Virus record (IMG/VR): IMGVR_UViG_3300047409_000613
Coordinates: 1-52,110 of that record
Origin: a virus
Taxonomy: Duplodnaviria > Caudoviricetes
DNA length: 52,110 nucleotides
Strand: one strand, 5' to 3'
A program made the translations under genes and the position numbers. The notes beneath the pieces are model-generated. The model did not search any database. It worked only from the letters and a program-made list of their open reading frames with translations, and had not been told where the DNA came from. Below, in pieces: positions 1,347 to 34,741 of the stretch (position 1 is the first letter of the stretch; each line of letters begins with the position of its first letter).

Positions 1347-1456
1347 GAACAACGGGGAAAAACCGGGACGTTCGGGTAAGTTCGAGAGCGTAAGCGTGAG
1401 GCCCGTTTGGAGAGGATTTCCCAGCGAATCATTGAATGTTCTCAACGATTTTCTAG

Positions 1457-1503
1457 TGGCGTCCCCAACGGGATTCGAACCCGTGTCTTGGCCTTGAAAG
1501 GGC
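1457..1503 (-). mobile_element. attP core: 3' half of tRNA-Glu(TTC)
   Basis: Minus strand reads GCCCTTTCAAGGCCAAGACACGGGTTCGAATCCCGTTGGGGACGCCA (anticodon loop, T-arm, CCA). No 5' half; abuts the integrase stop codon. Confidence 0.92.
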
Positions 1504-2738
1504 TAGGACACTCGACGTAACCGCCTGCGCGTGTGGACCTTGCGGGCCGGGACAACTTTCGGGGACAACTTCTGCCCCGGCGCGCGCCCGACCGCTTCCG
1601 TCTTCCGCCTTCCGCCTTTAGCCGGAACGCCCGGGGCGGAGAGGTTCACCGCGGCGACCGCCGCCACGTTCACCGCGTCATGCGCGGCCGCTGTGTAGCG
1701 CGCGGTCATCGGCGACCCTTCCGCGTGCATCCCGAGCCGGCCGACGGTCGCCTGATCGCGCGTCGCCAGGTAGACCTGGCTCAGGAAGCTGTGCCGCAGG
1801 TCGTAGATCGTCAGCAGCTCGGTGATGCCCACCTGCCGCGCGGCCCGCTGGAACGAGCGGTTCAGCGGCGAGGGGTCGAACTCGCCGTACGCATCGGCGG
1901 CGTCAAACGCCACGAACGCCGCGCGTCCTTCGGTCGAGAGTGGCAAGGTGCGCGTCTCGACGCCCCCGCCCTTCAGTCGACGCTCCAGGCGCACCGTCGA
2001 CGGTGTCGCGCGCAGGTTAACGTCGGTACGGCCGATCCCGCCAACCATCCCCGGCGGGATCCCGGCGTAGGCGATCACCCCGGCGCGCAGGGGACCGAGG
2101 CTTAGGACCGGCGGCCGTCCTTTCTTGACCGACCGGTGCGTCGGCATCGCGGCGAGGATCTGCGCGATGGTCCCGTAATCGGTGCCCCGGAGCTCAGGCT
2201 TCGCCGCCTTGATCGACTGCGACCCGCGGACGGGATTGGCGCCGGCCTTGCCGTTCATCACGCGGAAGAAGGTCCGCAGCGTCGACCGCCGTTTCAGCAC
2301 CGTCTGGTCGCCGATACCGTCGGGCCCGCTCGGCCGTCCGCGGGCACCGGCTGCGAAGTCCGGCACGCTCGGCGTCGTCAGCCAGGTCTGCATGACAATG
2401 TCGATCTCCGCGGACGCGATCGAGTGCCGCGATCGATCACGACCGAGCGCGTTGGCCCAAAGCTCCATGTGGGCCATCATCTGGTTCGCGGTCCGCTTCG
2501 CCGCGATCCGCTTGCCGAAGATGACGATGTCAGCGACGAACGTGCCGCGCTCGACGCGGGGCCCGCCGCCGAAGTGCTCGCGCTTCGTCTTCAGCCGCCA
2601 GGCGCGGATGTTCTCGAGCGGCTCGTCGAGTGGGTAATCCTTCGAGTACAGGACGCCGCGGACTCGGATGTAGCCCTGCAGCCCACCCTTCCACGGACGG
2701 ATCCCTTTTTCGAGGCGACGGTTCTTTCGACGGGTCAT
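1503..2738 (-). CDS. int: Tyrosine recombinase / phage integrase
   Basis: YDLRHSF, LGMH and TARY catalytic box II motifs; RLKGG lysine; adjacent to attP. Confidence 0.9.
   Translation of the reverse strand: MTRRKNRRLEKGIRPWKGGLQGYIRVRGVLYSKDYPLDEPLENIRAWRLKTKREHFGGGPRVERGTFVADIVIFGKRIAAKRTANQMMAHMELWANALGRDRSRHSIASAEIDIVMQTWLTTPSVPDFAAGARGRPSGPDGIGDQTVLKRRSTLRTFFRVMNGKAGANPVRGSQSIKAAKPELRGTDYGTIAQILAAMPTHRSVKKGRPPVLSLGPLRAGVIAYAGIPPGMVGGIGRTDVNLRATPSTVRLERRLKGGGVETRTLPLSTEGRAAFVAFDAADAYGEFDPSPLNRSFQRAARQVGITELLTIYDLRHSFLSQVYLATRDQATVGRLGMHAEGSPMTARYTAAAHDAVNVAAVAAVNLSAPGVPAKGGRRKTEAVGRAPGQKLSPKVVPARKVHTRRRLRRVS
1549..1577. repeat. Putative integrase arm-type sites, right pair (inside the int 3' end)
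   Basis: GGGACAACTTTC G GGGACAACTTCTGCCC, same motif and orientation as 1319-1346. Confidence 0.7.
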
Positions 2739-7460: not shown

Positions 7461-8006
7461 CTACGCTCCGACTTTTCCGCGAACGACACGCGCGGGCTGA
7501 CCCGCGGCGTCCTTCGGCGCAGCACTCTCGTCTTCCGACAACATGGCTTCGAATTCCGCGATCACCGTCGCGATCGCCTGACGCTTCTCCGGGTCGAGGC
7601 CGAGCAGTCGTCGCGACCATTCCGCGACGTCGTGACTCGAGGAGTCCTTGCCACGCCCGCGCCGCGCGCGCTCCTGAAGGACGCCGAGTGCGCGTTGCTT
7701 CACGCGCATCGGGGCGTGGTGGAACGCCTGCGCGACCTCGAGGTCTTCATCGTTGAGATCGGCGAGCAACGGATCGCTGGTATCGATGGCGCGCTTGCCG
7801 CTCGTGAGCGAGGACGGCGTCGTGCCGAGCATGCGCGCGATGCGATCGATCGTCCGCTGGCTGGGGTCCTGGGCCCCGCGCTCGAGCGCGCGGAGCGTGT
7901 TCGTCGTAATCCCGGCCTTCTTGCAGAAGTCGACTTTGTTCAGATCGAGCTTCGCGCGACCGGTCCGGAGGGTTTCGGCAAATTGCTGCAGCTGCTCAGG
8001 GGTCAT
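7461..8006 (-). CDS. CI-like XRE-family repressor
   Basis: XRE HTH (LNKVDFCKKAGITTNTLRALERG...IARMLG); divergent from the cro-like gene. Confidence 0.8.
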   Translation of the reverse strand: MTPEQLQQFAETLRTGRAKLDLNKVDFCKKAGITTNTLRALERGAQDPSQRTIDRIARMLGTTPSSLTSGKRAIDTSDPLLADLNDEDLEVAQAFHHAPMRVKQRALGVLQERARRGRGKDSSSHDVAEWSRRLLGLDPEKRQAIATVIAEFEAMLSEDESAAPKDAAGQPARVVRGKVGA

Positions 8007-8147: not shown

Positions 8148-8363
8148 ATGGAACTCAAGACTGCCAGGCGGATTGCGCGTCTCACGCAACAGGAACTCGC
8201 CAAACGGGCCGGCGTCGACCCCGCCCTCATCTGCCGCCTGGAGGGCGGCAAGGGGCGGCGGCCCAGCTACGAGACGATCGTGCGCATCGCACGGGCGCTC
8301 AATCTGGCGCCCGACGAGCTGTTCCCGGTCGCCGACGTCGGCGACGTCAAGAGGTCCGCGTGA
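8148..8363 (+). CDS. Cro-like XRE HTH protein
   Basis: LTQQELAKRAGVDPALICRLEGG...IARAL. Confidence 0.85.
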   Translation: MELKTARRIARLTQQELAKRAGVDPALICRLEGGKGRRPSYETIVRIARALNLAPDELFPVADVGDVKRSA

Positions 8364-13719: not shown

Positions 13720-14133
13720 ATGGCCTCGTCGTCCGATCGTCCGCCGCCCCTGCAGTTGCCGTACTACCCGAAGTACGTCGACGACTGGCTGTCGTCGCTG
13801 ACGATCGCGGGGTTAACGCTCGAGCAGGAGGGCGCGTACGACCGACTCTTGATGCACCAATGGAAGTCGCCCGACTGCTCGCTGCCGGACTCGGACCAGA
13901 CGCTCGCGCAGTACTCGCGACTCGGGGCCCGCTGGCGGAAAGTGGGCCGGCCGATCATCGACGCGTGTTTCGTCGCGATCGAGGGCGGGCGACTCCGCAA
14001 CGAGAAGCTGTACCAGCTCTGGCTGGACGCGCAGGACAAGAGCGTCAAAGCCCGCGCCGCCGCCGACGCGCGATGGACGAAAGTCCGGCAGGGCCGGCTG
14101 CCGATGTCGTCCAACGGTGGGGACAATTCGTGA
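13720..14133 (+). CDS. DUF1376/YdaU-family replication protein
   Basis: YPKYVDDWL...LTLEQEGAYDRLL...W...LP...LRNEKL. Confidence 0.8.
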   Translation: MASSSDRPPPLQLPYYPKYVDDWLSSLTIAGLTLEQEGAYDRLLMHQWKSPDCSLPDSDQTLAQYSRLGARWRKVGRPIIDACFVAIEGGRLRNEKLYQLWLDAQDKSVKARAAADARWTKVRQGRLPMSSNGGDNS

Positions 14134-14143
14134 CAGGTGTCGC

Positions 14144-14255
14144 ATGCGGACGCATATGCGGACGCATCTGCGAACGCACCCGCCGAGCATGGCTAGATCA
14201 CCGATCTGGGCATGCTCCAGCGATGCAAGTACGTAAGTACAAAGTACTTAAGTAC
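14144..14255. repeat. Putative origin 1: iterons plus AT-rich repeats
   Basis: ATGCGGACGCAT x2 plus CTGCGAACGCAC (14144-14179); AAGTAC x4 (14227-14255). Confidence 0.65.
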
Positions 14256-14378
14256 CACCGTACGGGTTCTTCGTACGTCCGTTCTTCTCTTCCTCCGTGT
14301 ACCCAGATCCGAGAATTAGAGCACCGGCGCTGGCGCGCCGGGACACCCACACGATTCACGAGAGACCGGGGGTTCCCT

Positions 14379-14864
14379 ATGCGAACGCCGGTGGCTTTTC
14401 CGCTGCTCTGCGTTATCGCGAAGGAGCAGCTCCTCGCGGAGCCGTCGATCGACAACGGGGAATGGGCGGAGCGGATCAAGGTTCGCCTGGTCCGGTTGCG
14501 GTTGGGCTACCCGGATCCCCCGCATCGGCTGACCGACGCGATGGACGCGGTGGAGCACGCGCTGGCGAAGGAAGGCCGGCCACGGCCCCTGCCGCGTCGA
14601 CTGGGCCCAGCGCCGCCGCCGGCCGACGTCCGTCCGCTCAGCCACGACGAGGCCCGGCGCGCCCTCGCCTTTGTCGGCGGGCTCGGCCTGGTGAAGACCA
14701 TGCCGAAGCCTCGCGCGATCACCCGTCGCGTGGTCGACCTTCACGCGCAGTCGCGGATGGTCGCGGCTGCGATCGTTGCGTCCGTCGAACGGTGCGAAGC
14801 ACTCGAGCGCGCGGCCGCCGACGCCGCTGCCGTCGTGCCCGATCCCGTGGAGCCCGGCGCATGA
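14379..14864 (+). CDS. Hypothetical replication-region protein
   Basis: Helical ORF between the origin and RusA. Confidence 0.55.
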   Translation: MRTPVAFPLLCVIAKEQLLAEPSIDNGEWAERIKVRLVRLRLGYPDPPHRLTDAMDAVEHALAKEGRPRPLPRRLGPAPPPADVRPLSHDEARRALAFVGGLGLVKTMPKPRAITRRVVDLHAQSRMVAAAIVASVERCEALERAAADAAAVVPDPVEPGA

Positions 14865-17292: not shown

Positions 17293-17925
17293 ATGACGAC
17301 ACATCCTGCGGGGGGGGCGACCACAATGAGCAGCAGCGCCGCGGCCGCCGATCGCCCGGGCCTGATCTACACGCGCTGTCGCGTCTGCACCTGCGCGCTC
17401 GGCCTCGACGACGACCGCACGCGCGGCGTCTGCGTCGATTGCGCGAATCGACCGGAGGGCAAGCGGCTCCTCGCGCGCGCGGTCGCACCCGGCGTCACGC
17501 CGACGGCCGCGCCGTCCAAGACGGCGGCGCCAACGGCCCCGCCGATCGCAGTCGCCGCGCCGCCGCCGGCGCAGGAGCGCCCCTTCTCGCCGGCGGAGAA
17601 GTCGCTCATCCGGCACATGCACCACGTCCTGCCCCCGGCGGACCTGTTGCGCGTGCTGAACGATCGGCTGCAGGCCGACGTCGGGCCCGGCGTGCCGCTC
17701 TGGACGCTCGAGCAGGTGCACGCCGAAACGACGACGCTGCAGCGGACGAGCGGCGCGAGCGATTGGGAGGGGCTGCGCCAGATCGTCCGCCTCGCGCGGC
17801 ACGGCGGCGTCCTCGATTCAATCACGGCCGAGGTGATCAACGACTTCGCCATGGTGTTCCAGCTCTCGTCGGCGCAGCTCATGACTCTGCGCGACGTCAT
17901 CCGCAGCGCAAAGGAGTCCGCATGA
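17293..17925 (+). CDS. Hypothetical protein with N-terminal Zn finger
   Basis: CRVC...CVDC, Pro/Ala linker, helical C-domain. Confidence 0.65.
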   Translation: MTTHPAGGATTMSSSAAAADRPGLIYTRCRVCTCALGLDDDRTRGVCVDCANRPEGKRLLARAVAPGVTPTAAPSKTAAPTAPPIAVAAPPPAQERPFSPAEKSLIRHMHHVLPPADLLRVLNDRLQADVGPGVPLWTLEQVHAETTTLQRTSGASDWEGLRQIVRLARHGGVLDSITAEVINDFAMVFQLSSAQLMTLRDVIRSAKESA

Positions 17926-18866
17926 TCGGCAAGCCCGTCTTCCGGCGCCAGGAGTTCGATACCGCGACGCTCGAGCTCGGCGGCGCGCCGATCGCGCTCT
18001 CGGCCTATGCGACCACGGGCCTCCGGATCGTCTGCGTCGGCCCGAGCGGCGCCGGCAAGACCAACGCCGGGCTCCTCATCGCCGAGCAGCTCGCGACGCA
18101 GGGCTGGATCTCCGTGCTGTTCGATCGCGAGGGCGACATCGGCGCGCTCTACGAACCCATGCGCGACGTCACGCACTTCGAGAATTACCTGCGCGGCCGC
18201 CATCACCCGATCCTTGTGGTGCCGGTGCGCCACACGGATGACTTCCTCCACTACGGGCGGACGGTCCAGCGCGTCGTCGAGGAGGACCGTCAGCCGGTCT
18301 TCCTGATGGTCGACGAGGGGCAGATGGTCAGCGCGTCCCGGAAGCGGAAGGAATCGATCGGCGAGGCCTCCGACCTGATGAACGATTTCACCGAGCGCGG
18401 GCGCAAACGGTCCCTCGACGTCTTCGTGACGGCGCACCGCTTCAGCGGCACGCTCCATCGCTCGGTCTTCGCGAACAAGAACCTGACCCTGATCGGCCGC
18501 CAGGAAGATCCGACCGCCTGGTCGGCGCTCGCGCCGCAGTTCAAGGGCTCGGCGATCGGCTATCCGGATCTCGCGGCGCTCGCGCCCGGGGAGTTCTTCT
18601 GCTTCGCGCGATCGGGGGTGGAGAAGATCCAGATGCCGATGGCAGATGCGCTCGCCGCGGTCGCCCCGCCGGCGACCGTCGTCCGCCAGGCGCTGCCCAG
18701 CACGTTTTCGCAGTGGGACCGGGCCATGCGCGAGCTGCCGACCGACCGGCTGCAGCGGCTGGACGACGCGGTCACGGGCGTGCTGGCGGCGATCGTCGGG
18801 CTCACGTTTCCGCAACTGGCGGCCGGTCGACGCGCGCGGCGTGAGGAACTGGAGGCCCGGCCGTGA
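17922..18866 (+). CDS. HerA/FtsK-like (DUF87-type) P-loop ATPase
   Basis: Walker A GPSGAGKT, FDREGD, Walker B LMVDEG, RGRKR. Confidence 0.8.
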   Translation: MIGKPVFRRQEFDTATLELGGAPIALSAYATTGLRIVCVGPSGAGKTNAGLLIAEQLATQGWISVLFDREGDIGALYEPMRDVTHFENYLRGRHHPILVVPVRHTDDFLHYGRTVQRVVEEDRQPVFLMVDEGQMVSASRKRKESIGEASDLMNDFTERGRKRSLDVFVTAHRFSGTLHRSVFANKNLTLIGRQEDPTAWSALAPQFKGSAIGYPDLAALAPGEFFCFARSGVEKIQMPMADALAAVAPPATVVRQALPSTFSQWDRAMRELPTDRLQRLDDAVTGVLAAIVGLTFPQLAAGRRARREELEARP

Positions 18867-20746
18867 CCTGGCAGGCCTTCGTCCTCGAGCACGGGTGGCA
18901 CGCGCACGGCGCGCACCTGGCCGCGGTGCTCGAGCAGCCCCTGTTGGCGATCGCGCGCCTGCGCCAATCGGCCAGTTGCCGGCGACTCGCGAAGGCCAAA
19001 ACGTTCGGCGACCTCTTCGCGCTCTGGCGCGGGCGGCCGCCACGCGACGAGGAGTGGCCGGCGCCGCGGAAGATCGGCGGCGGCTATGAGTGGCTGGCGC
19101 CGGAGCTCGCGCTGCTCGCGTCGCTCGTCGGGCGCCTGGGCGCCGCGGAGATTGCGGGCGTCCTGACGACGCGCCTGCGGCGGCTGACCGGCGATCGCCG
19201 CGCGGTCCGGCCGCGCAATGCGATCTGGACCGCCTCCCAGCGCGTCGGCCTCATCGCCACCGACGTCGCCGGCGGGCTCACGGCGCACCAGGCCGGCCGC
19301 GAGATCGGCTGCGTGTCGATCATCTACAACGAGATCCGGCACGGACGGCTGAAGACCGTGCGCGTCGGCCGCCTCCTCGTCATCCCGCGCGACGAGTGGG
19401 CGCGGTGGAAGGGCACGCGGGTCTTCCCCCCGAAGGGCTACGTCCAGCTCTCGCGGCTGAAGCGGCCGCTCGGCATCCGGAGTGACAAGCTCTCGGAGTG
19501 GGCGCGGCTCGGCTACGTGCCGACGGCGATCCGCTGCAACCCGTACGGCGCGCGCGCGGCATCGACGATGTTCGGCACCTGGTGGATTGACCCGAAGATC
19601 GTCACGAAGCTCACCGCCGATCGCCGCGCCGGCCGCGCGATGCCCTGGTGGGGCCAGCCCGAGCCGGGCAACCTGAAGATCACCTGGACGCTCCTGCAGC
19701 AGCGCCAGCATCCCGCGCGGTGTGCCACGTGCCGCGCGATCTGGGGCCCCGCGGGCGCGCCGCGGACGTTCGACGACTACATGCAGCGGTATCCGCCGCT
19801 GGCCTTCGGCGCGAAGCGGCACCTCACGCGCGTGTGGTCGGACGGCCTGTCGGTCAGCGAGCTCGCGCGCGACGTCAACCTCCCCTCGTCGCTGGTGTTG
19901 TCCGCGATCCGGACCGGGGTCCTTCGCGCGACCCGCGTCGCCAGCCGGTATGTCATCACGCGCACCGACGCGACGCGCTGGAAGTTCCGGCGCTGTCCCA
20001 CGGGTCGCGGCCGGCACTGCTGGATGCAGATCAGCGCGGCGCGTCAGACATACGGGTTCAGCCGCGCGGAAATCGCCGCGCACATCAAGGCCGGTCGACT
20101 CACGTCGAAAATCGGCGCGTGCGGTCCGCAGCGGGGTCTTCGGTACGTGCTCCGCCAGCAGATCCGCGAGCTCCGGGAAACCTCGGGTTTCCCCGCCGCG
20201 GACGCCGCCCGGCGACTCGGGATCTCCGTCGCGCGCCTGAAGACGTTCGCGCGGTACGCGGACTGGCGCGATCCGCACCGCTACACCCTCGACGTCATCA
20301 CCACCATCCGGAAGCGAATGGAATCCGAGGCGGGGTTGACGATCGCCCAGGCCGCGCGGAAGCTCCGCAAGTCGGTCCGGTGGGTCGAGCGGGAGATCGC
20401 CAATGGCACCGCGCGGGTGTTGCGGACCCCGTTCAAGACGACGCGGCGCTATATCTCCGGGCCGATGTTCCGACGTCTACAGGCCGCGGTCACCCATCCC
20501 ACCCCCAGGCTGCGCTGGTCGTCGGAATGGCTGCTCGTGAGCGACGCGGCACTGTTGGCCGGCGTCTGCAGCAACACGGTGCAGCGCTGGGCGGATCTGG
20601 GCCAGGTCCGGATCCGCTTCAAGGCGCGCTTCCGTCGCTACCACCGCCGTTCGGTCATCGCGCGCGCGCGGCTGCATTGGACCACTGAACGCCGGCGCGG
20701 GCGCGCCCCCGCCCCCGCCTGGCTGCAGACCCCGGAGGCCGCGTGA
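18863..20746 (+). CDS. Large basic protein with multiple excisionase-like HTH repeats
   Basis: About seven [L/M]xxxxAAxxLG...xG.L-type units. Confidence 0.7.
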   Translation: MTWQAFVLEHGWHAHGAHLAAVLEQPLLAIARLRQSASCRRLAKAKTFGDLFALWRGRPPRDEEWPAPRKIGGGYEWLAPELALLASLVGRLGAAEIAGVLTTRLRRLTGDRRAVRPRNAIWTASQRVGLIATDVAGGLTAHQAGREIGCVSIIYNEIRHGRLKTVRVGRLLVIPRDEWARWKGTRVFPPKGYVQLSRLKRPLGIRSDKLSEWARLGYVPTAIRCNPYGARAASTMFGTWWIDPKIVTKLTADRRAGRAMPWWGQPEPGNLKITWTLLQQRQHPARCATCRAIWGPAGAPRTFDDYMQRYPPLAFGAKRHLTRVWSDGLSVSELARDVNLPSSLVLSAIRTGVLRATRVASRYVITRTDATRWKFRRCPTGRGRHCWMQISAARQTYGFSRAEIAAHIKAGRLTSKIGACGPQRGLRYVLRQQIRELRETSGFPAADAARRLGISVARLKTFARYADWRDPHRYTLDVITTIRKRMESEAGLTIAQAARKLRKSVRWVEREIANGTARVLRTPFKTTRRYISGPMFRRLQAAVTHPTPRLRWSSEWLLVSDAALLAGVCSNTVQRWADLGQVRIRFKARFRRYHRRSVIARARLHWTTERRRGRAPAPAWLQTPEAA

Positions 20747-20991: not shown

Positions 20992-21356
20992 GGCATATCA
21001 GCGTCGCGCTCACCACGCGCCAGATCCGGGCCCGGACGAAGACGGTGACACGGCGCCTCGGCTGGACACACCTGCAGCCCGGCACGCTGCTGCAGCCGGT
21101 GAAGAAATCGCGGGGCCTCAAGAAAGGCGAGCGCGTGGAAAAAATCGGCCGCCCGATCCGCGTCGTCCGCGTCTCCCGCGAGCGAGTCTCGGCGCTCCTG
21201 GCCAACGAACCCTACGGCTCCCTGGAAGTCTCCCGCGAGGGCTTCGGGGGCGAACTGACGCCGCGGATGTTTGTCGAGTTCTTCTGCCGGACGCACCGCT
21301 GCCGGCCGTCCACCTACGTCACCCGGATCGAATTCCAGCACCTGGAGACACTATGA
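20988..21356 (+). CDS. ASCH-domain protein
   Basis: IRARTKTVTRR...EGF...FVEFF...VTRIEF. Confidence 0.75.
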   Translation: MRHISVALTTRQIRARTKTVTRRLGWTHLQPGTLLQPVKKSRGLKKGERVEKIGRPIRVVRVSRERVSALLANEPYGSLEVSREGFGGELTPRMFVEFFCRTHRCRPSTYVTRIEFQHLETL

Positions 21357-22084
21357 GCACAGACGCCCTCATCGCCGAAGCCCCGTCGGACGTCCACGTC
21401 GTCGCGCTCACCCCGGCCGAGATGGTGCCCGCGCAGGCCGAGCTCGTCGCCTGGTGCGACCGGAAGATCCGGGCGCTCATCGACGAGGCCGACGAGCTCG
21501 ACCTGCACATGAAGCTGGCGCTCGAGAACGGCTGGAAGACGAGCGTCGTCCACGCGACGATGAACCGCACGGCGCGGCGCATCACCTACTACCAGAAGAT
21601 GCAGGCGGCGCTGCAGGCCGGCTACCTGCTCGTGCCGAACATGCCGGTCGACGTCCTCGCGGTGCGCGTCAAGGGCGCGCGGCCGCGGCAGCAGACGAGC
21701 GGGTACGCCTCGCATCGGTTCACATCGCCCCCCGAGCTGCTCCCGGCCGGCGCGGGCCGCTACGTCGACGAGCAGCCGCGCGAAACGTCCGAGGAGTATG
21801 AGGGCAAGGACTACCAAGGGAAGCCCGAAACGAAGACTCGCTATCTCTCCGCCGAGCACGACGAGGAGGTCGACTTCCCGTTCCAGACCATGAAGCCCGT
21901 CGTGCTCGAGGCCGCGGCCCGCGCGATGGCGCTGAAGATCTTCGACCAGATCGGGCAGGTGCAGAACAGCGGCGGTGAGGATCCGATTCTCGTCGGGCAA
22001 CTCCTCGACCCGCGCGGCTCGCGACACCATCGACGCCTGGTGACGTTCTTCATCGCGTGGTGGGTCGACACCGCGTCGCTCTAA
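21353..22084 (+). CDS. Hypothetical phage protein
   Basis: GGAG SD; coiled-coil N-terminus; FFIAWW C-terminus. Confidence 0.65.
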   Translation: MSTDALIAEAPSDVHVVALTPAEMVPAQAELVAWCDRKIRALIDEADELDLHMKLALENGWKTSVVHATMNRTARRITYYQKMQAALQAGYLLVPNMPVDVLAVRVKGARPRQQTSGYASHRFTSPPELLPAGAGRYVDEQPRETSEEYEGKDYQGKPETKTRYLSAEHDEEVDFPFQTMKPVVLEAAARAMALKIFDQIGQVQNSGGEDPILVGQLLDPRGSRHHRRLVTFFIAWWVDTASL

Positions 22085-22096
22085 GGGCAACCGCCC

Positions 22097-22378
22097 ATGA
22101 CGAAGCGCCAACGGCCAACGAAACTCGCCGCGCGGGTACTCTCGGTCAGCGTCGACAAGGTCCGAGAACTCACCGAGCAGATCGCGCGCCTGGAAGCCGA
22201 CGCCCTCCGGATGGGCGAGTACTGCGCGCGCCAGGACACGGCGCTCGAGGGCCTGATGCGGGCGGTGTTGCAGGAGGCGTGTGACCCCTACGCCCATCCC
22301 ACGTCGATCGCCTGCGCCAGCTTGATCGCGGCCGTCGCCACCGCGAGCCAGGTCCTCCACGGACGGGAGCGCCACTGA
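22097..22378 (+). CDS. Hypothetical coiled-coil protein
   Basis: Last ORF before the second att site. Confidence 0.5.
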   Translation: MTKRQRPTKLAARVLSVSVDKVRELTEQIARLEADALRMGEYCARQDTALEGLMRAVLQEACDPYAHPTSIACASLIAAVATASQVLHGRERH

Positions 22379-22480
22379 ATGGCCACGAAGACGCGGCCGC
22401 GAGCCACCACACCGGCGGCGAACCACTCGAAAACATTCAACAAACGGTGACCGTGCACTAAACTATTGGGGTCGGTTTGC

Positions 22481-22527
22481 GACTGGGGGTCAGGGGGTCG
22501 CTGGTTCGAATCCAGTCATCCCGACCA
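22481..22527 (+). mobile_element. Second att-like core: 3' half of tRNA-Pro(GGG)
   Basis: GACTGGGGGTCAGGGGGTCGCTGGTTCGAATCCAGTCATCCCGACCA (anticodon loop, T-arm, CCA); no 5' half upstream. Confidence 0.88.
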
Positions 22528-22662
22528 TTTTTCGCACGAATCGTTGCCGTAAAATTGCCGAATTCGGCGGCTAGGGTTGCTCTGAACGGCTGGACCATCC
22601 GCGCCAGCCTGCCGCCGATTCTTTCCCACCCATTCCGCGGACGCTGCTTGCGGAGGCAGCCC

Positions 22663-23034
22663 GTGGCGAAGTACTCGGTTCGTATCGTCACCACCTCACC
22701 CGACGGGCCGCCGATCATTTTCGAGGTTCGAAACCTCGCTGAGATCGCCGGGGCATATCAGCGACTCCGGAATGAGGCGCTGGGGCGTGCACACCGGGCC
22801 CAGCAGCGCGCGCGATCGATCGCCGGCGTGACGGCGAAACGCGATGCCCGGCAGCGCGGGGCCGACGGGGACGAGGAGCTGCTCACGGCCTTGAAGGCTC
22901 AACGCGAGAAACACCCCTCGCACTCACTCCGCGCGATTGCCAGCAACCTGGTGTCGCGCTTCGGCAGCCATCATCACAAGAGTCCCGTCGACGCGCTGCG
23001 CAAGCGACTCGCCCGCCTCGAACGCCGAAAGTAG
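22663..23034 (+). CDS. Hypothetical protein with C-terminal HTH-like segment
   Basis: GGAGG SD; SLRAIASNL...DALRKRL. Confidence 0.55.
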   Translation: MAKYSVRIVTTSPDGPPIIFEVRNLAEIAGAYQRLRNEALGRAHRAQQRARSIAGVTAKRDARQRGADGDEELLTALKAQREKHPSHSLRAIASNLVSRFGSHHHKSPVDALRKRLARLERRK

Positions 23035-23081
23035 GACGCGCGCCGCGGTTCTGTCCCATCGCGCGTGCTCTACTCCCACAC

Positions 23082-23309
23082 ATGAGCACGACGGTTCAGA
23101 GCGTCACACCCGACAGCCCCCCCGCTCGCATCCTCCGGCGTCCAGTCGTGATCGATCGCGTTGGCGTGAGCTACTCGACGATCTGGCGCATGTACCGGGC
23201 CGGGCAATTCCCCGCGCCGATTCGGGTTTCGGCCCGGATTGTCGGTTGGCGCGAGCGTGACGTCGACGCCTGGATTGCCGCGCGCGAAGAGCGCCGGAGG
23301 ATCGGGTGA
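23082..23309 (+). CDS. alpA: AlpA-family transcriptional regulator
   Basis: ILRRPVVIDRVGVSYSTIWRMYRAGQFPAPIRVSARIVGWRERDVDAWI. Confidence 0.92.
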   Translation: MSTTVQSVTPDSPPARILRRPVVIDRVGVSYSTIWRMYRAGQFPAPIRVSARIVGWRERDVDAWIAAREERRRIG

Positions 23310-23560
23310 GCGCCGGCGACGACAGCAACCAGGCAGCGGAGCGCGCCGCGATCGCGACGACGTCGCCATGGCTGAACGGCCAGCAGGCAGCAGCCTACGT
23401 GGGGAAGAGCAAGCAATTTCTCTTTCGCGAGATCCACGCCGGCCGGCTGCGCGCGGCTCGTATCGGAGGCCGCGGCGAAATCCTGACGCGCGCCGAATGG
23501 CTCGACGAGTTTGTCCAGGCGCAGGCAATTCCGATCTCGATCAACAGGCGGCGCGCGTAA
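23306..23560 (+). CDS. Excisionase-family HTH protein
   Basis: WLNGQQAAAYVG...IHAGRLRAARIGGR...WLDEF. Confidence 0.85.
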   Translation: MSAGDDSNQAAERAAIATTSPWLNGQQAAAYVGKSKQFLFREIHAGRLRAARIGGRGEILTRAEWLDEFVQAQAIPISINRRRA

Positions 23561-24518
23561 ATGGCCACGCCCAGGCGGCCGTACGTCTCGATTCGGCTCG
23601 GGACGTTCGACGACGCGATCGCCGCCGGCGTCTCGAGCGGCGGCGTGTTACTGCTGGCACGCCTACTGACGCATCGCGACAAGCGCTCGGTCCCTGGGCT
23701 TCTCCGGTCTGGCCTCGCTGGTTTGAGCGAATCACTCGGACAGTCGAAGACGGCGACGCGGCGCGGGCTCATCGAACTCGAACGCGCCCACCTGGTGCGT
23801 CTCGACGCCCCCGCGCGGGTGCTCTATGTGGAGGGCGCGATCGACGCGGATCCCCCGCGGACAGAAAACAGCGTCCGCGGCATGGCGGCCCAGGTGCGCG
23901 AACTGCCGGCGACCTCCCCGGTCACTCTGGCCGTCCGTCGCGCCATCGAGGCCGCGCTCTCGGAAGGCGACAAGGCGTCCGCCTGGCTGGCGACGTGGCG
24001 CGAGCTCGCCGGCCCGGACTCAGGCCCTGACCCAAGCCCTGAGTCAGGGCCTGACCCAGGGCCGGACTCAGGCCCTCACGCGCGCGCGCGTACCACCACC
24101 ACCACCGATCCCGAGATCCGATCCCGAGATCCGAGATCCGAGACCCGCGCGCGCGGCGCTGGCGGGCGAGGGCGGCGCCGGCGACGTCGTCGCGGTGGCG
24201 GCGAAGACCAACGGCACGGGCCTGCGTGAACGCTTCGACGCGTTCTGGCAGGCGTATCCCCGGAAAGTCGCGAAGGATGGCGCGTGGCGCGCCTGGCAGA
24301 AGCGGAAGCCGAGTGCGGAACTGCTGCAGCAGATCGTCGCGGCGCTTGCCTGGCAAGTACACCAGGACACCTGGCTGAAGGACGGCGGCCGCTACATTCC
24401 GCACCCGGCCACGTGGCTCAATGCCGGCCGGTGGCAGGACGAACCGAGCAAGGGCCCGCGGCTGAACGATCGCACGCTCGCGATCGGCCGGGCCGGCGAG
24501 GAGTTTCTCCGATCATGA
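23561..24518 (+). pseudogene. Phage replication initiator split by a frameshift in an internal repeat tract
   Basis: wHTH-like N-part (23561-24229 frame); C-terminal FDAFWQAYPRKVAK...YIPHPATWLNAGRWQDE in another frame. Confidence 0.75.
24016..24143. repeat. Putative origin 2: 5x12-bp iterons plus simple repeats
   Basis: GGACTCAGGCCC-like x5 (24016-24075), (CG)6, (ACC)5, GATCCCGAGATCC x2. Confidence 0.75.
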
Positions 24519-25186
24519 TCGACGCCGACAAGCCGAGGTTCGTGGAGGCCGTCGGCCGTCTCGCGGTCGCGCTGCGCGAGAAGGACCCCGACGTCGTCAC
24601 GCTGCGTGTGTACTTCGACGGGCTGCGGACCCTCGAGATCGAGCTCGTCGACGCCGCCGCGGAGCGACTGATGAGCGCGGCGTGGTTTCCCAAGGTGAGT
24701 GAATGGCGAGCGGCGGCCGCGAAGATCGAAGGCGAGCGCCGCGCGGCGCAACGCGAGCTGTTACGAAAACTCCCGACGCCAATTTGTGACCGGTGCGCCG
24801 ACACGGGCTGGATCGAACTGGGCGCCGGCGAGACGTTCAAGGGCCACACGGCGACGCGGCGCGCGGAACCCTGCGCGTGTCAACAGGCGCGGCGGCTCGA
24901 GCTGCTCGGCCGGCGACACTGGCCCGCGCTCCCGGCCGGTGCGCCGGCGACAGAGGACCGCGCGTTCACGCGAGCCGAGAGCGCGAGGGCCGTCACCGAG
25001 TTCGAACGCGCCCGCGGCGCGCGGCTCGTGAAGACGATGCCAGAGGATCCGCCGAGACGCGCGCGCAGCGCCACGCAACGCGCGTTTGAGATCGTGCTGC
25101 AGGGCATCGCGGCCCAGGTGAAGCGGGTCGCCGCGGCCGAGGCGGTCGTCGCCACGAAGACAGGGACGGACGGCGACCCACGATGA
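24515..25186 (+). CDS. Putative helicase loader/inhibitor-like protein with Zn finger
   Basis: YFDGL...WFPKVSEW and CDRCADTGW...PCAC; directly follows Rep. Confidence 0.55.
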   Translation: MIDADKPRFVEAVGRLAVALREKDPDVVTLRVYFDGLRTLEIELVDAAAERLMSAAWFPKVSEWRAAAAKIEGERRAAQRELLRKLPTPICDRCADTGWIELGAGETFKGHTATRRAEPCACQQARRLELLGRRHWPALPAGAPATEDRAFTRAESARAVTEFERARGARLVKTMPEDPPRRARSATQRAFEIVLQGIAAQVKRVAAAEAVVATKTGTDGDPR

Positions 25187-25413
25187 AGACGGCCGCGACC
25201 GGCGTAGTCGTGCTCTGCGCCGGCCACGTGGTTCGATCGGCGGTCGTCGAACTGCTCGCGGATCTTGAGACCAGAGGCTTCCGGTTCTTCGTCGAGCGCG
25301 GGCGCCTCCTCGTCTCGCCCGCCTCTGAGTTGACGGACTTTGATGATCTCTGTATCCGCGCGAATGTTGACGAGCTGCGCGCCATCGTGCGCGCGTGTGG
25401 AGATCGCCAGTGA
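25183..25413 (+). CDS. TubC-N docking-like small protein
   Basis: LLADLETRGFRFFVERGRLLVSP...IRANVDELRAIV; a pattern often seen near satellite primases. Confidence 0.55.
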   Translation: MKTAATGVVVLCAGHVVRSAVVELLADLETRGFRFFVERGRLLVSPASELTDFDDLCIRANVDELRAIVRACGDRQ

Positions 25414-25760
25414 CGGACCAGGTCCGCACGTCCGGCGATCTTCGCGTGCCGTTCACCACGGCGCTCGACGCGTTCAGCGTGCCGGCAGTCGTGACGCCCC
25501 CCGAGGGCACGCCGATCGAGACGCGCGGGATCTGGGTCAGTCCGACGACCGAGAACAGGCCCGGTTCCATCGACCTGAAGCGCCGCGAACCGACGCGGAT
25601 CCTGGCCCTTCCGCTCGCCGACGTGCCGAGCGTGCCACGTGGAACGGCCATCGTGGCGCCCGAGATGGACGGGCTCGAGGCGCGGCGCTGGCGCGTGGAG
25701 GGGTTCGACCGCCTCGAGGTGGACCACGTCCGCGTCATCGTCGCCGAGGGCGCGCCGTGA
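25410..25760 (+). CDS. Head-tail joining protein paralog
   Basis: About 77/104 residues identical (by-eye count) to 34406-34741; GGAG SD. Confidence 0.8.
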   Translation: MTDQVRTSGDLRVPFTTALDAFSVPAVVTPPEGTPIETRGIWVSPTTENRPGSIDLKRREPTRILALPLADVPSVPRGTAIVAPEMDGLEARRWRVEGFDRLEVDHVRVIVAEGAP

Positions 25761-25897
25761 CGCGGACGTACGACGAGGTGCAGGCCGCGGCGGTGCTCAC
25801 CGTGTGCACGTCGTGCCCGATCTGCATCCGCTGCCGACGTCGATTCGATCGTCGAGATTTCGGGGCCCCCAGCGGTGGCCGCGTCCGCTGCGGTTGA
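25757..25897 (+). CDS. Small Cys-rich protein
   Basis: CTSC..CIRC; GTGA overlap. Confidence 0.35.
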   Translation: MTRTYDEVQAAAVLTVCTSCPICIRCRRRFDRRDFGAPSGGRVRCG

Positions 25898-26014
25898 GCC
25901 TCAAAGGTTCGGAGGCTCCTGTGACTTCTGGGCCCCAGACGGGTGCACGGCAGCGCAGGAATCGTCCACCTTCCAGCTGACATTTAGGGCTAAACCGTAA
26001 CGGGCGGCGCATCG
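25898..26014. other. Putative cos/packaging region
   Basis: Intergenic stretch upstream of terS, where lambda-type cos sites lie; exact site not identifiable. Confidence 0.35.
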
Positions 26015-26581
26015 ATGACGAAGACGAAGGCCAGCGCGCGGCGACGGGCGTCGAAGAAAACCGCGCCCCGAACGCGGTCGAAGCCGCGCGGCCTGTTGAC
26101 GCGCCGGGAGCTCGCGACGCTGCTCGACATGCATCGGCAGACGGTGGTGAAGTGGGAGCAGGAGGGGATGCCGATCGCCGAGCGCGGCTCGCGCGGCCGC
26201 GCGTCGCTCTACCGCGAGGTCGACGTGCGCGCCTGGTTGCAGCTGCGCGCGGAGGCCGCGAAACAGCCGGGCGTCGTCACGGCCCTCCAGGACCGGGCGC
26301 GCAAGGAACGTGCGCAGGCCGCGCTCGCGGAACAGTCGTATCAGATGCGAATGCGTGACCTGCTGCCGCGGGACGAGGTCGAGAAGACGTGGGCCGCCGA
26401 GGTCGCCGCGGTGCGCACGAAGCTGCTCGCGTGGACGACGACGCTGGCCGACCAGGTGCACCGAGTCTCGACGATCGAAGGCCTGCCGGGCGTGGAGCGC
26501 CTGCTCCTGGAAGCGGTGCAGGACGTGTTGCGCGAGCTCACCGATCCCCAGCCACCGGTCCCGGGAGCGCGCGTCGCATGA
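26015..26581 (+). CDS. terS: Terminase small subunit (Nu1-like)
   Basis: LTRRELATLL...VKWEQEGMP wHTH followed by a coiled coil. Confidence 0.88.
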   Translation: MTKTKASARRRASKKTAPRTRSKPRGLLTRRELATLLDMHRQTVVKWEQEGMPIAERGSRGRASLYREVDVRAWLQLRAEAAKQPGVVTALQDRARKERAQAALAEQSYQMRMRDLLPRDEVEKTWAAEVAAVRTKLLAWTTTLADQVHRVSTIEGLPGVERLLLEAVQDVLRELTDPQPPVPGARVA

Positions 26582-34405: not shown

Positions 34406-34741
34406 GTGAGCGGCGATCTCCGGGTCCCGTTCGCGACGGCGCTCGAGGCGTTCGCGGTACCGGCGACCGTCACGGTGCCCGGCGGCGGGCCCCTCATCAC
34501 GCGCGGGATCTGGGTCTCGCCGCTGACGCAGGACATGCCCGGATCCGGCGGGGTCCGGCGCCGGGAGCCGAAGCGGGTGCTGGCGCTGCCGCTCGCGGAC
34601 GTGCCGACGGTGCCGCGCGACACCGCGATCGTGGCGCCGGAGATGGCGGGCCTGACGGCCCAGCGCTGGCGGGTGGAGGGGTTCGAGAGCGTCGAAGTCG
34701 ATCACGTGCGCGTGATCGTCGTGGCGGATCCGGGGGCGTAA
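34406..34741 (+). CDS. Head-tail joining protein (FII-like)
   Basis: Position after MCP; small beta-rich protein. Confidence 0.7.
   Translation: MSGDLRVPFATALEAFAVPATVTVPGGGPLITRGIWVSPLTQDMPGSGGVRRREPKRVLALPLADVPTVPRDTAIVAPEMAGLTAQRWRVEGFESVEVDHVRVIVVADPGA

Follow-up and report, generated by a model that had tools for sequence, protein, structure and literature searches.

Does a complete temperate phage that has an integrase and an attachment site of its own hold, immediately upstream of its packaging genes, a second attachment-regulator-replication module that came from elsewhere? The question is raised by the window (the whole 52,110-nt stretch of DNA analysed here, viral record IMGVR_UViG_3300047409_000613), in which a block spanning ~22481-25900 (~3.4 kb), between orf93 and the terminase gene terS, had been described in an original prediction as a satellite module, of the type of phage-inducible chromosomal islands (PICIs) or P4, fused into a complete phage. 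The record is rated 100% complete, its GC content is ~0.69 along its whole length, and an end comparison finds its first 121 nt identical to its last 121 nt, so that it represents a circular assembly of 51,989 nt. We find that the block is a distinct attachment (att)-regulator-replication cassette, additional to the integrase and attP of the phage. We conclude, with a probability of roughly 0.6, that this cassette was captured by a lambda-like temperate phage of Vicinamibacterales from a small element targeting tRNA-Pro(GGG). Genes were called by means of third-position GC content (GC3) and annotated with Pfam and PHROGs; the block and its borders read as follows:

ends at 22378: orf93, left neighbour of the block
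22481-22527, plus strand: att core, 3' fragment of tRNA-Pro(GGG), 47 nt, starting with the final 2 nt of the anticodon stem and reaching CCA
22528-22570, plus strand: conserved non-coding arm, with TTGCCG twice and the palindrome GCCGAATTCGGC
22648-23034, plus strand: orf128, an open reading frame (ORF) with no Pfam or PHROG match, GC3 0.79
23082-23309, plus strand: AlpA-family DNA-binding regulator, excisionase-type (PF05930, phrog_66)
23306-23560, plus strand: HTH_17 protein (MerR/excisionase-type), sharing a GTGA overlap with alpA
23561-24229, plus strand: N-terminal part of the replication initiator (Rep) and linker with iterons, frame 2, stop at 24229 (phrog_25711, E 4e-5)
24011-24083 and 24105-24147: iteron stretches in the Rep linker
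24011-24076, inside rep: iterons, 5.5 units of 12 nt
24105-24134, inside rep: iterons, 2.3 perfect units of 13 nt
24111-24147, inside rep: iterons, 5.4 units of 7 nt
24195-24518, plus strand: C-terminal domain of Rep, frame 0, that is, +1 relative to the N-terminal part
24515-25186, plus strand: Rep partner ('E'), 223 amino acids (aa), ATGA overlap with Rep, helical N-terminal domain and four-Cys motif
25183-25413, plus strand: orf76, ATGA overlap with the partner gene, GC3 0.77
25395-25760, plus strand: FII', a second lambda-FII-type head-tail attachment gene (PF05354, E 1.8e-6)
25757-25897, plus strand: doubtful 46-aa Cys-rich ORF, GTGA overlap with FII'
up to 26014: non-coding stretch before terS, with short direct repeats
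26015-26581, plus strand: terS, first late gene (phrog_57, E 1.4e-24; DUF1441, E 1e-8)

The att core points both to the chromosomal target and to the host. The tRNA-Pro(GGG) 3' fragment noticed in the original prediction is real; ARAGORN and Rfam give no call at its position because it is a mere fragment. A 32-nt part of the core has at least 120 exact-match stretches in a collection of species genomes, and in 28 of the 80 loci examined all 47 nt are identical inside an intact tRNA-Pro(GGG). All 28 of these loci are titled Vicinamibacteria, Vicinamibacterales or Acidobacteriota, and the 47-nt identity to the tRNA-Pro(GGG) of Acidobacteriota therefore names the likely host group. No second copy of the core is found in the record at E ≤ 0.001. 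The adjacent arm, whose motif occurs once in the window, would hold putative binding sites for a recombinase, for Xis or for a regulator. The sequence GARAACATTCAA occurs only twice in the record, at 1432-1443 (minus strand), 13 nt past a tRNA-Glu core described below, and at 22429-22440 (plus strand), 41 nt ahead of the tRNA-Pro core; the expected count is 0.07, to be read as a post hoc figure since the motif was defined from both sites, and the sequence could be a protein-binding site shared by both att cores.

A chromosomal island with the same arm and the same genes in the same order is present in the host order. A search with the partner protein of 401 genomes of the order with the exact tRNA match returned one strong match (G070, E 1.7e-44), and examination of 60 kb around this match reveals an island of 9.2 kb (G070:C4, ~935,000-944,300; L149) that extends from an intact tRNA-Pro(GGG) to a 40-nt direct repeat, a copy of the tRNA 3' end 9.2 kb downstream. 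Read in its own orientation, the tRNA is followed by the arm, an HTH_17 protein (54% aa identity to that of the block), a Rep C-terminal domain (72%) and a partner (57%), and window 23348-23908, comprising the HTH_17 protein and the N-terminal part of Rep, matches the island with 31% aa identity over 225 aa (E 5e-23). The core and arm together are 82% identical over 91 nt to the sequence to the right of the G070 tRNA; the 43-nt arm flank alone aligns to the G070 arm, which likewise has both TTGCCG repeats and the GCCGAATTCGGC palindrome, with a score of 35, vs. 15.8 ± 2.4 for shuffled sequence (z 8.1; reached in 0 of 500 shuffles), and two host-side control comparisons are at chance (z 0.5). 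The alignments indicate that the window keeps the core and the regulator-facing arm, the integrase-side arm being unrecognisable. The stand-alone tRNA-Pro island that the original prediction had proposed to seek thus exists.

The block and the island share the tRNA target, the homologous arm, the order HTH_17-Rep-partner at 54-72% aa identity, a similar GC3, and a Rep with an iteron-type linker and the same C-terminal domain. They differ in that the island has a tyrosine integrase (1e-18) adjoining the far repeat, both att repeats, an S49 protease (2.5e-18) and an HK97-type capsid (1.9e-42), in that it lacks AlpA, orf128, orf76 and FII, and in that the T-arm of its tRNA differs from the window core. 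No terminase, portal or tail gene lies between the island repeats. The island Rep and protease each appear frame-split. We regard the island as a candidate capsid-encoding satellite, or deleted prophage, of Vicinamibacterales. Capsids related to that of the island occur in 12 of the 401 genomes of the order, but G070 alone has the partner gene as well; the G070 genome has no second related capsid gene. In IMG/VR, relatives of the capsid are present in 117 of 122 candidate stretches, of which the best 80 loci were examined. A wider family of G070-type islands is not shown by these searches.

Further carriers of block-type genes bear on the target site. At G001:C8 778,895-784,900 (L090/L171), an intact tRNA-Pro(GGG) with an exact match to the window core is succeeded first by an AlpA that has 42% identity to that of the block, the best AlpA match among the 80 tRNA-Pro loci examined, and then by a zinc-finger/toprim primase-like ORF and a large helicase-like ORF (labels assigned by eye). 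This locus resembles the P4-like set and has two transposase-like ORFs further on; no integrase is seen, nor is there, within 40 kb, a tRNA-end repeat of at least 12 nt. Taken together, the G070 and G001 elements indicate that tRNA-Pro(GGG) is a landing site for small integrative elements in the order. In locus L152, the 3' end of an integrase gene is followed by HTH_17, a one-ORF Rep and a partner; after the integrase stop, at L152:455-560, there is a by-eye likeness to a tRNA 5' half up to the anticodon loop, and on that likeness L152 would represent a cassette relative whose att is specific for another site. At the contig end G002:C532 (L043), from a metagenome-assembled genome labelled Gemmatimonadaceae, a tRNA-Pro 3' fragment stands without a tRNA 5' half, and an HTH_17 homologue (33% aa identity) lies ~1.8 kb upstream of the fragment. 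L043, L064 and L031 have similar sequence right after CCA, which suggests another element family at tRNA-Pro.

The block also stands apart from the rest of the phage in composition. The median GC3 is 0.79 for the seven block ORFs from 22648 to 25413, vs. 0.90 for the other 78 ORFs (Mann-Whitney p 2.4e-5), and five of the seven lie below the lowest GC3 of the 78 others; the G070 homologues have GC3 values of 0.72-0.84. Outside the block the phage has an att-integrase pair and a candidate replication region, with left-arm genes on the minus strand and right-arm genes on the plus strand:

1456-1502, minus strand: attP core of the phage, a 47-nt 3' fragment of tRNA-Glu(UUC), abutting the integrase stop
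1503-2738, minus strand: integrase of the phage, a weak match (PF00589, E 4.8e-4, under the cut-off; phrog_1)
7461-8006, left arm: CI-like repressor (Pfam/PHROGs annotation)
starts at 8148, plus strand: Cro-like gene, first listed in the right arm
13720-14133, plus strand: DUF1376 ORF, 137 aa (PF07120, E 1.8e-11)
14141-14263, plus strand: repeat cluster after the DUF1376 ORF and, together with it, candidate first initiator/origin
34406-34741, plus strand: canonical FII gene of the phage, source or sister of FII'

The att site attributed to the phage in the original prediction is therefore present, in the tRNA-Glu(UUC) fragment next to the integrase gene. The Xis attributed to the phage is not: 0 of 10 left-arm ORFs next to the integrase gene match an excisionase family. 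As for the Rep and origin attributed to the phage, the DUF1376 ORF and the repeats are there, but no helicase or primase is recognised for this replication region by Pfam or PHROGs; 13720-14390 is probably the origin region of the phage.

Structural relatives of the phage have the same layout without the block. The nearest, the G148 prophage (66% identity in TerL, 70% in portal and 68% in capsid), consists of a tRNA-Met, an integrase gene reading toward the tRNA, ~21 kb of early genes and terS, and the window minus the block is this layout. The product of 1503-2738 is 23% identical (E 1e-9) to the ORF beside tRNA-Met in G148, which, from this match and its place, is taken to be an integrase. 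The G148 prophage has no block protein and a single FII; in L005 (TerL 68%) and in the G001 prophage (TerL 72%), the block is missing upstream of terS. Related phages without the block, for which the original prediction had proposed a search, can thus be named. Scans of viral contigs for close relatives gave 4 loci for TerL, 0 for the partner, 1 for AlpA (spurious), 5 distant loci for the Rep C-terminal domain (having only that domain in common) and 1 for orf243 (L273, with another terminase type); INPHARED, searched in distant mode, yielded no match beyond 73 nt of Rep in Pseudomonas phages. No phage from the viral-contig or INPHARED scans is close enough for an empty-site comparison.

The Rep gene of the cassette is broken in its iteron linker. 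The C-terminal domain matches phrog_9474 (E 7e-24), phrog_9327 and phrog_270 (range E 7e-24 to 1e-19), the N-terminal domain belongs to no named family, and neither primase nor helicase domains are recognised in Rep by Pfam or PHROGs. In initiators of the lambda O type the origin lies inside the gene. The block Rep resembles lambda O-type initiators and phrog_9474, phrog_9327 and phrog_270 in having iterons in the linker between the N- and C-terminal domains and a small partner gene coupled downstream; it differs in being split +1 by an extra 13-nt unit and in the lack of a named family for its N-terminal domain. Iteron-type initiators are expected as single ORFs of ~250-320 aa, and in the block the C-terminal domain is in another frame, the first stop of the N-terminal frame falling after residue 222. 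All five Rep homologues whose ORFs were read are single ORFs (~255 and ~290 aa in L008 and L009; 288, 269 and 274 aa in L152-L154), and deletion of one 13-nt unit by script restores an uninterrupted 314-aa frame (23561-24518). Together, the single-ORF homologues and the restored frame point to a tandem duplication, and the break is best read as the duplication of one 13-nt iteron-like unit. In the Logan contig of the run that holds the window, the Rep region is identical, with 0 differences (contigs cannot reveal rare variants), so the break is not the error of one assembler. The second initiator with iterons of the original prediction accordingly stands as regards the C-terminal domain and the in-gene iterons and does not stand as an intact gene, and its proposed supply of a second replicon is contradicted by the frame break, which makes it probable that this replicon is silent or decaying.

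The partner has 57-61% aa identity to its homologues in G070, L152 and L153, in each of which the gene directly follows Rep. It has no Pfam or PHROG family match; a profile of six sequences searched against PDB sequences gave only syntaxin-like noise (E ≥ 0.12); and PF11417 (G39P-type loader) matched 1 of 6 homologues, weakly (E 0.096). An AlphaFold model (mean predicted local distance difference test score 63.9; ~88 for residues 1-80) gave nothing at E ≤ 0.001 against the PDB by Foldseek, the top match being lambda P (E 0.97, TM 0.24). The label 'loader-like', which the original prediction gave to 24515-25186, is on these results a guess from gene position.

The regulators and the late end of the block present a mixed picture. 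The predicted AlpA gene is confirmed (PF05930, E 3e-11, 43.4 bits vs. a cut-off of 21; phrog_66, E 7e-12). The predicted excisionase at 23306-23560 is upheld as to similarity (PF12728, the HTH_17 family, E 4e-5; phrog_66, E 2.7e-4), but its 24.2 bits are under the cut-off of 27. Two other labels fall away: the 'HTH-like' ORF at 22648-23034 has zero Pfam or PHROG matches, and the 'TubC-N-like' ORF at 25183-25413 reaches TubC_N only at E 0.047 and 14.3 bits, vs. a cut-off of 26. The head-closure paralog is borne out: FII' scores 28.9 bits with PF05354, has a GC3 of 0.89, like structural genes, and is 74% identical in aa (77/104) and 76% in nt to the canonical FII of the phage, vs. 39-56% in aa to the FII proteins of L004, L005, G148 and G001. 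The closer relationship to the FII of the phage than to those of its relatives indicates a duplicate from this lineage or a near relative. The likely start of FII' is the GTG at 25410, within a GTGA overlap. The ORFs of the block are joined by five 4-nt ATGA/GTGA overlaps and one direct abutment (read from the sequence) and share the orientation of terS and the late operon; no terminator-like site is found on the plus strand of the block up to terS. This single co-directional, overlap-coupled chain makes it probable that AlpA and HTH_17 are still expressed. As to the control of cos/terS by AlpA that the original prediction envisaged, what the sequence shows goes no further than the shared orientation and the lack of a plus-strand terminator-like site. 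To the right, 25757-26014 is likely the cos region of the lambda-type packaging system, and terS (188 aa) is intact, aligning to relatives from about residue 20-27 onward; DNA similarity to relatives starts only at ~26083, inside terS.

Does this anatomy make the block a satellite of a described class? According to the available text of de Sousa et al. (2023, PMC10085698), SatelliteFinder defines PICIs, capsid-forming PICIs (cfPICIs) and P4-like satellites, the P4 core being int, psu, delta, sid, alpA, epsilon and alpha, and treats tail and lysis genes as forbidden. Measured against these definitions, the block resembles the satellites in its AlpA next to a replication module (an AlpA-type regulator being a defining element of PICIs) and in its head-tail attachment gene, which is of cfPICI type. 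It departs from them in most other respects. None of the ten ORFs in 22648-26581 matches an integrase family, and tblastn with the G070 integrase is empty, in keeping with the missing integrase of the original prediction. In place of a PICI pri-rep with origin, the block has a frame-broken initiator of phrog_9474/270 type, with iterons and neither a primase-replicase nor a helicase domain. It has one core, not two att sites, and ~3.4 kb inside a 52-kb phage, rather than the ~10-15 kb of a discrete PICI or the ~10 kb or more of satellites in general. Only alpA of the seven P4-like core genes is recognisable (psu, sid and delta are missing), and of the cfPICI set the block has only a regulator and one head-tail attachment gene, with no terS, capsid or capsid-remodelling gene of its own; the other head genes are the single lambda-type set of the phage. 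The block is, moreover, embedded among tail and lysis genes. We conclude that it fails the PICI, cfPICI and P4 definitions, above all for want of an integrase, and that the PICI/P4 membership proposed in the original prediction is not sustained.

The closest described situation is that of the helper-embedded PICI (HE-PICI) in the available text of Tommasini, Mageeney and Williams (2023, PMC10111431), which also sets out a four-zone layout for Gram-negative PICIs, with a 'Late zone' that holds captured helper late genes and at which helper-like cos sequences have been noted. As in an HE-PICI, a lambda-like phage contains a cassette of satellite type that points the same way as its late genes; the cassette runs from integration-zone proteins through replication to a 'Late' end with a captured helper late gene, an order (AlpA/HTH_17, Rep and partner, FII') that would fit the zones except for the Bro zone, orf128 having no family match; and the embedded element would be replicated passively with the composite. 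In contrast to the HE-PICIs of that text, the block has no integrase, and hence no integrase clade to compare, and a single att core; that core is a tRNA-type attP with a tRNA 3' replacement sequence, whereas HE-PICI attPs lack a replacement sequence; no late gene is interrupted, since the block ends before an intact terS; no Bro-N domain is found; the initiator is not a primase; and the host belongs to Acidobacteriota. The composite here is, in addition, a circular complete viral record, not a prophage releasing a satellite. Each defining feature of HE-PICIs that can be tested is absent, and the block is therefore not a member of that class.

Several observations weigh against capture from a small integrative element, and they are best considered with the alternatives on which they bear. 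The window is held by a single sequencing run (X1), probably the source of the record, and no Logan contig of that run bridges the left junction, the k=31 Logan graph breaking exactly at the core. Both facts would suit an assembly chimera, two tRNA-Pro-core elements joined at the 47-nt repeat, which we consider the most improbable of the alternatives. One contig (21,053 nt, depth 12.1) ends at 22510; another (28,727 nt, depth 14.0) runs from 22494 through the block, terS and terL to past 30000 with 0 differences and contains the right boundary of the block; and a 43-nt unitig (22481-22523, depth 24.4), about the sum of its neighbours with a host copy included, joins the two. Depth is thus alike on both sides of the left boundary and even across the block, the coverage pattern for which the original prediction had asked. 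Both the reads and the closing overlap of 121 nt far exceed the 47-nt repeat, which makes a mis-join unlikely; the overlap suggests a final assembly word of ~121, and the record is circular and complete. On the evidence available, the block is not a chimeric assembly. A loose graph end at 22481 reads into the 5' part of a tRNA-Pro gene, and the core unitig has ~2x the depth of the phage contigs, from which it follows that the sample also contains, at about the depth of the phage, an organism with the identical tRNA-Pro 3' half, a candidate host. The same intact tRNA in X1, the 47/47 identity of the core to host tRNA, the retention of the adjacent arm motifs and the existence of integrase-bearing tRNA-Pro(GGG) islands in the host order would also accord with a helper-embedded element that is still mobile, leaving and entering the phage or directing it into tRNA-Pro(GGG) through the integrase of a resident island acting in trans. 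We judge this to be highly improbable given the single core copy, the unrecognisable integrase-side arm, and the lack of any X1 contig in which the 5' half of the host tRNA runs into the block interior, although contigs cannot exclude such a joint; low-depth joints in the X1 graph (sides of 20-23 nt) look like other organisms.

More of the adverse evidence bears on ordinary phage mosaicism, in which a different temperate phage supplied, through recombination, a module for excision control and replication (arranged as attP, xis, Rep, partner, late genes and int) that this phage now uses, the tRNA-Pro core being a fossil attP and no satellite having been involved. Rep and partner occur in phage contigs, 1.5 kb upstream of TerL and portal in L153 and, in L154, after int, HTH_17 and RecT-like and exonuclease-like ORFs (labels by eye), and a distant partner-like gene lies in the early region of the G001 prophage, ~7.5 kb upstream of terS; the pair is thus not satellite-specific, and the donor may have been a temperate phage or defective prophage. 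The genomes searched offer no second example of the G070 island (1 of 401 in the order, 1 of 118 in the family); it too contains frame breaks and might itself be a defective prophage, and its far-end integrase reads outward, a prophage arrangement according to the available text of Tommasini et al. (PMC10111431); moreover, 0 of the 80 capsid-relative loci examined carry its Rep, partner, HTH_17 or integrase. With no Xis family recognised beside the phage integrase, AlpA and HTH_17 may be the sole excisionase-type proteins of the phage and may be ordinary, needed phage genes, and the block ORFs other than Rep are intact and overlap-coupled. Regulatory genes are lower in GC3 than structural genes within the G070 island too. 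The early genes of the window are common to none of its structural relatives, so that the comparison with those relatives speaks to layout and does not amount to a clean empty-site test. To the left of the core, the flank aligns to the integrase-side arm of the island at chance level (z 0.0), and no integrase remnant is demonstrated. An apparent remnant before the core (codons ending ...TVTVH*, with a by-eye likeness to the C-terminus of the G070 integrase) was dropped, as 255 of 500 shuffles reached the score of the 100-nt left-flank alignment and tblastn gave no integrase similarity. Mosaicism is a possible, if rather doubtful, account. The block duplicates functions of a phage that has an integrase, a tRNA-Glu attP and a DUF1376 ORF with repeats; its Rep is frame-broken; the nearest relative of its att arm is a 9.2-kb element that, as it stands, is no autonomous phage; the nearest match of its AlpA lies in a tRNA-Pro island with primase-like and helicase-like ORFs; and the duplicated helper-type late gene at its end fits the PICI 'Late zone' of the available text (PMC10111431). 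The occurrence of Rep and partner in phages, the single G070 case, the frame breaks and the outward integrase are the reasons why we use the neutral term small integrative element for the donor, which may be either a satellite or a defective mini-prophage; origin from a satellite is plausible but unproven.

How the cassette was captured, and in which direction, we infer from its organisation, as we do its expression and function. Under capture from a small integrative element, the phage would have acquired the att core with one arm, AlpA and HTH_17, Rep with its origin and the partner, as well as a short 'late' tail including the helper-type FII gene, and the cassette would have come to lie at the early/late junction, directly before the presumed cos and terS. 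The route may have been a crossover, at a cos sequence common to both, between the phage and a circular form of the element, after which the extra cos and int were lost; or the element may have integrated at a secondary site and later shed its int side. With no integrase and no second att core, the cassette would be unable to excise on its own; it would be copied and packaged passively within the 52-kb genome, with AlpA and HTH_17 acting as DNA-binding regulators or directionality factors, and with the second origin probably silent since the 13-nt iteron duplication put the initiator out of frame. A more elaborate arrangement is improbable, namely a stable helper-satellite composite packaged as one genome that keeps the control half of the satellite (att, AlpA, the Xis-type protein and origin), in which an island integrase acting in trans could use the orphan, perfectly host-matched att to place the phage at tRNA-Pro(GGG) or to recombine it with resident islands, the satellite circuit would be coupled through AlpA and HTH_17 to the expression of late and packaging genes, and the 13-nt slip would be an on/off switch for the second origin.

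Satellites embedded in helper prophages, and the capture of helper late genes by satellites, are known from Enterobacteria. The opposite gene flow, a packaged complete phage fixing a satellite- or island-type att-AlpA-replication cassette, is to our knowledge little documented, and our literature search found no report of a complete phage with such a fixed cassette; the satellite biology of phages of Vicinamibacterales (soil Acidobacteriota) is, as far as we know, essentially uncharted. The block would be a case of modular exchange between phage and integrative element toward the phage, in an unstudied host phylum. The results imply that phages and small chromosomal islands exchange whole control modules, and for Vicinamibacterales they indicate a hotspot of small integrative elements at tRNA-Pro(GGG). 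If the orphan att or AlpA/HTH_17 is functional, the window offers a tractable case of a phage borrowing the control module of a parasite; if they are non-functional, it offers a dated fossil of an encounter between phage and element. In the 13-nt iteron duplication, Rep carries a clean lesion that lends itself to testing.

The remainder of the phage is organised as follows. The right arm carries, in order, the Cro-like gene, a Cas4-type exonuclease, the DUF1376 ORF, the repeat cluster, RusA, a metallopeptidase, an AAA ATPase and a multi-HTH protein. From 26015 on there is a lambda-type late set, with GpA terminase matches (E 4e-87 and 5e-72), a portal of the lambda family (5e-106), a protease of ClpP type, an E-type capsid (2e-76) and FII, ending with tail and lysis genes. 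At 13720-14390, ATGCGGACGCAT (x2.9) and AAGTAC-type repeats follow the DUF1376 ORF, which stands alone, without the C-terminal domain that L152 has fused to N-terminal domains of this kind. At 17922-20746, an AAA_22-like ATPase (314 aa) overlaps the start of a 627-aa multi-HTH protein with an HTH_17 match (E 5e-10) and a weak sigma-70 region-4-like match; the pair may be an early-to-late regulator. Upstream of the block, orf243 (21353-22084) has a homologue in L273 with 61% aa identity; in the stretch L273:9366-14371 this homologue comes after RusA and 1.6 kb before a set of HNH, terS and TerL of a different type, and the gene thus tends toward the early/late junction in unrelated phages.

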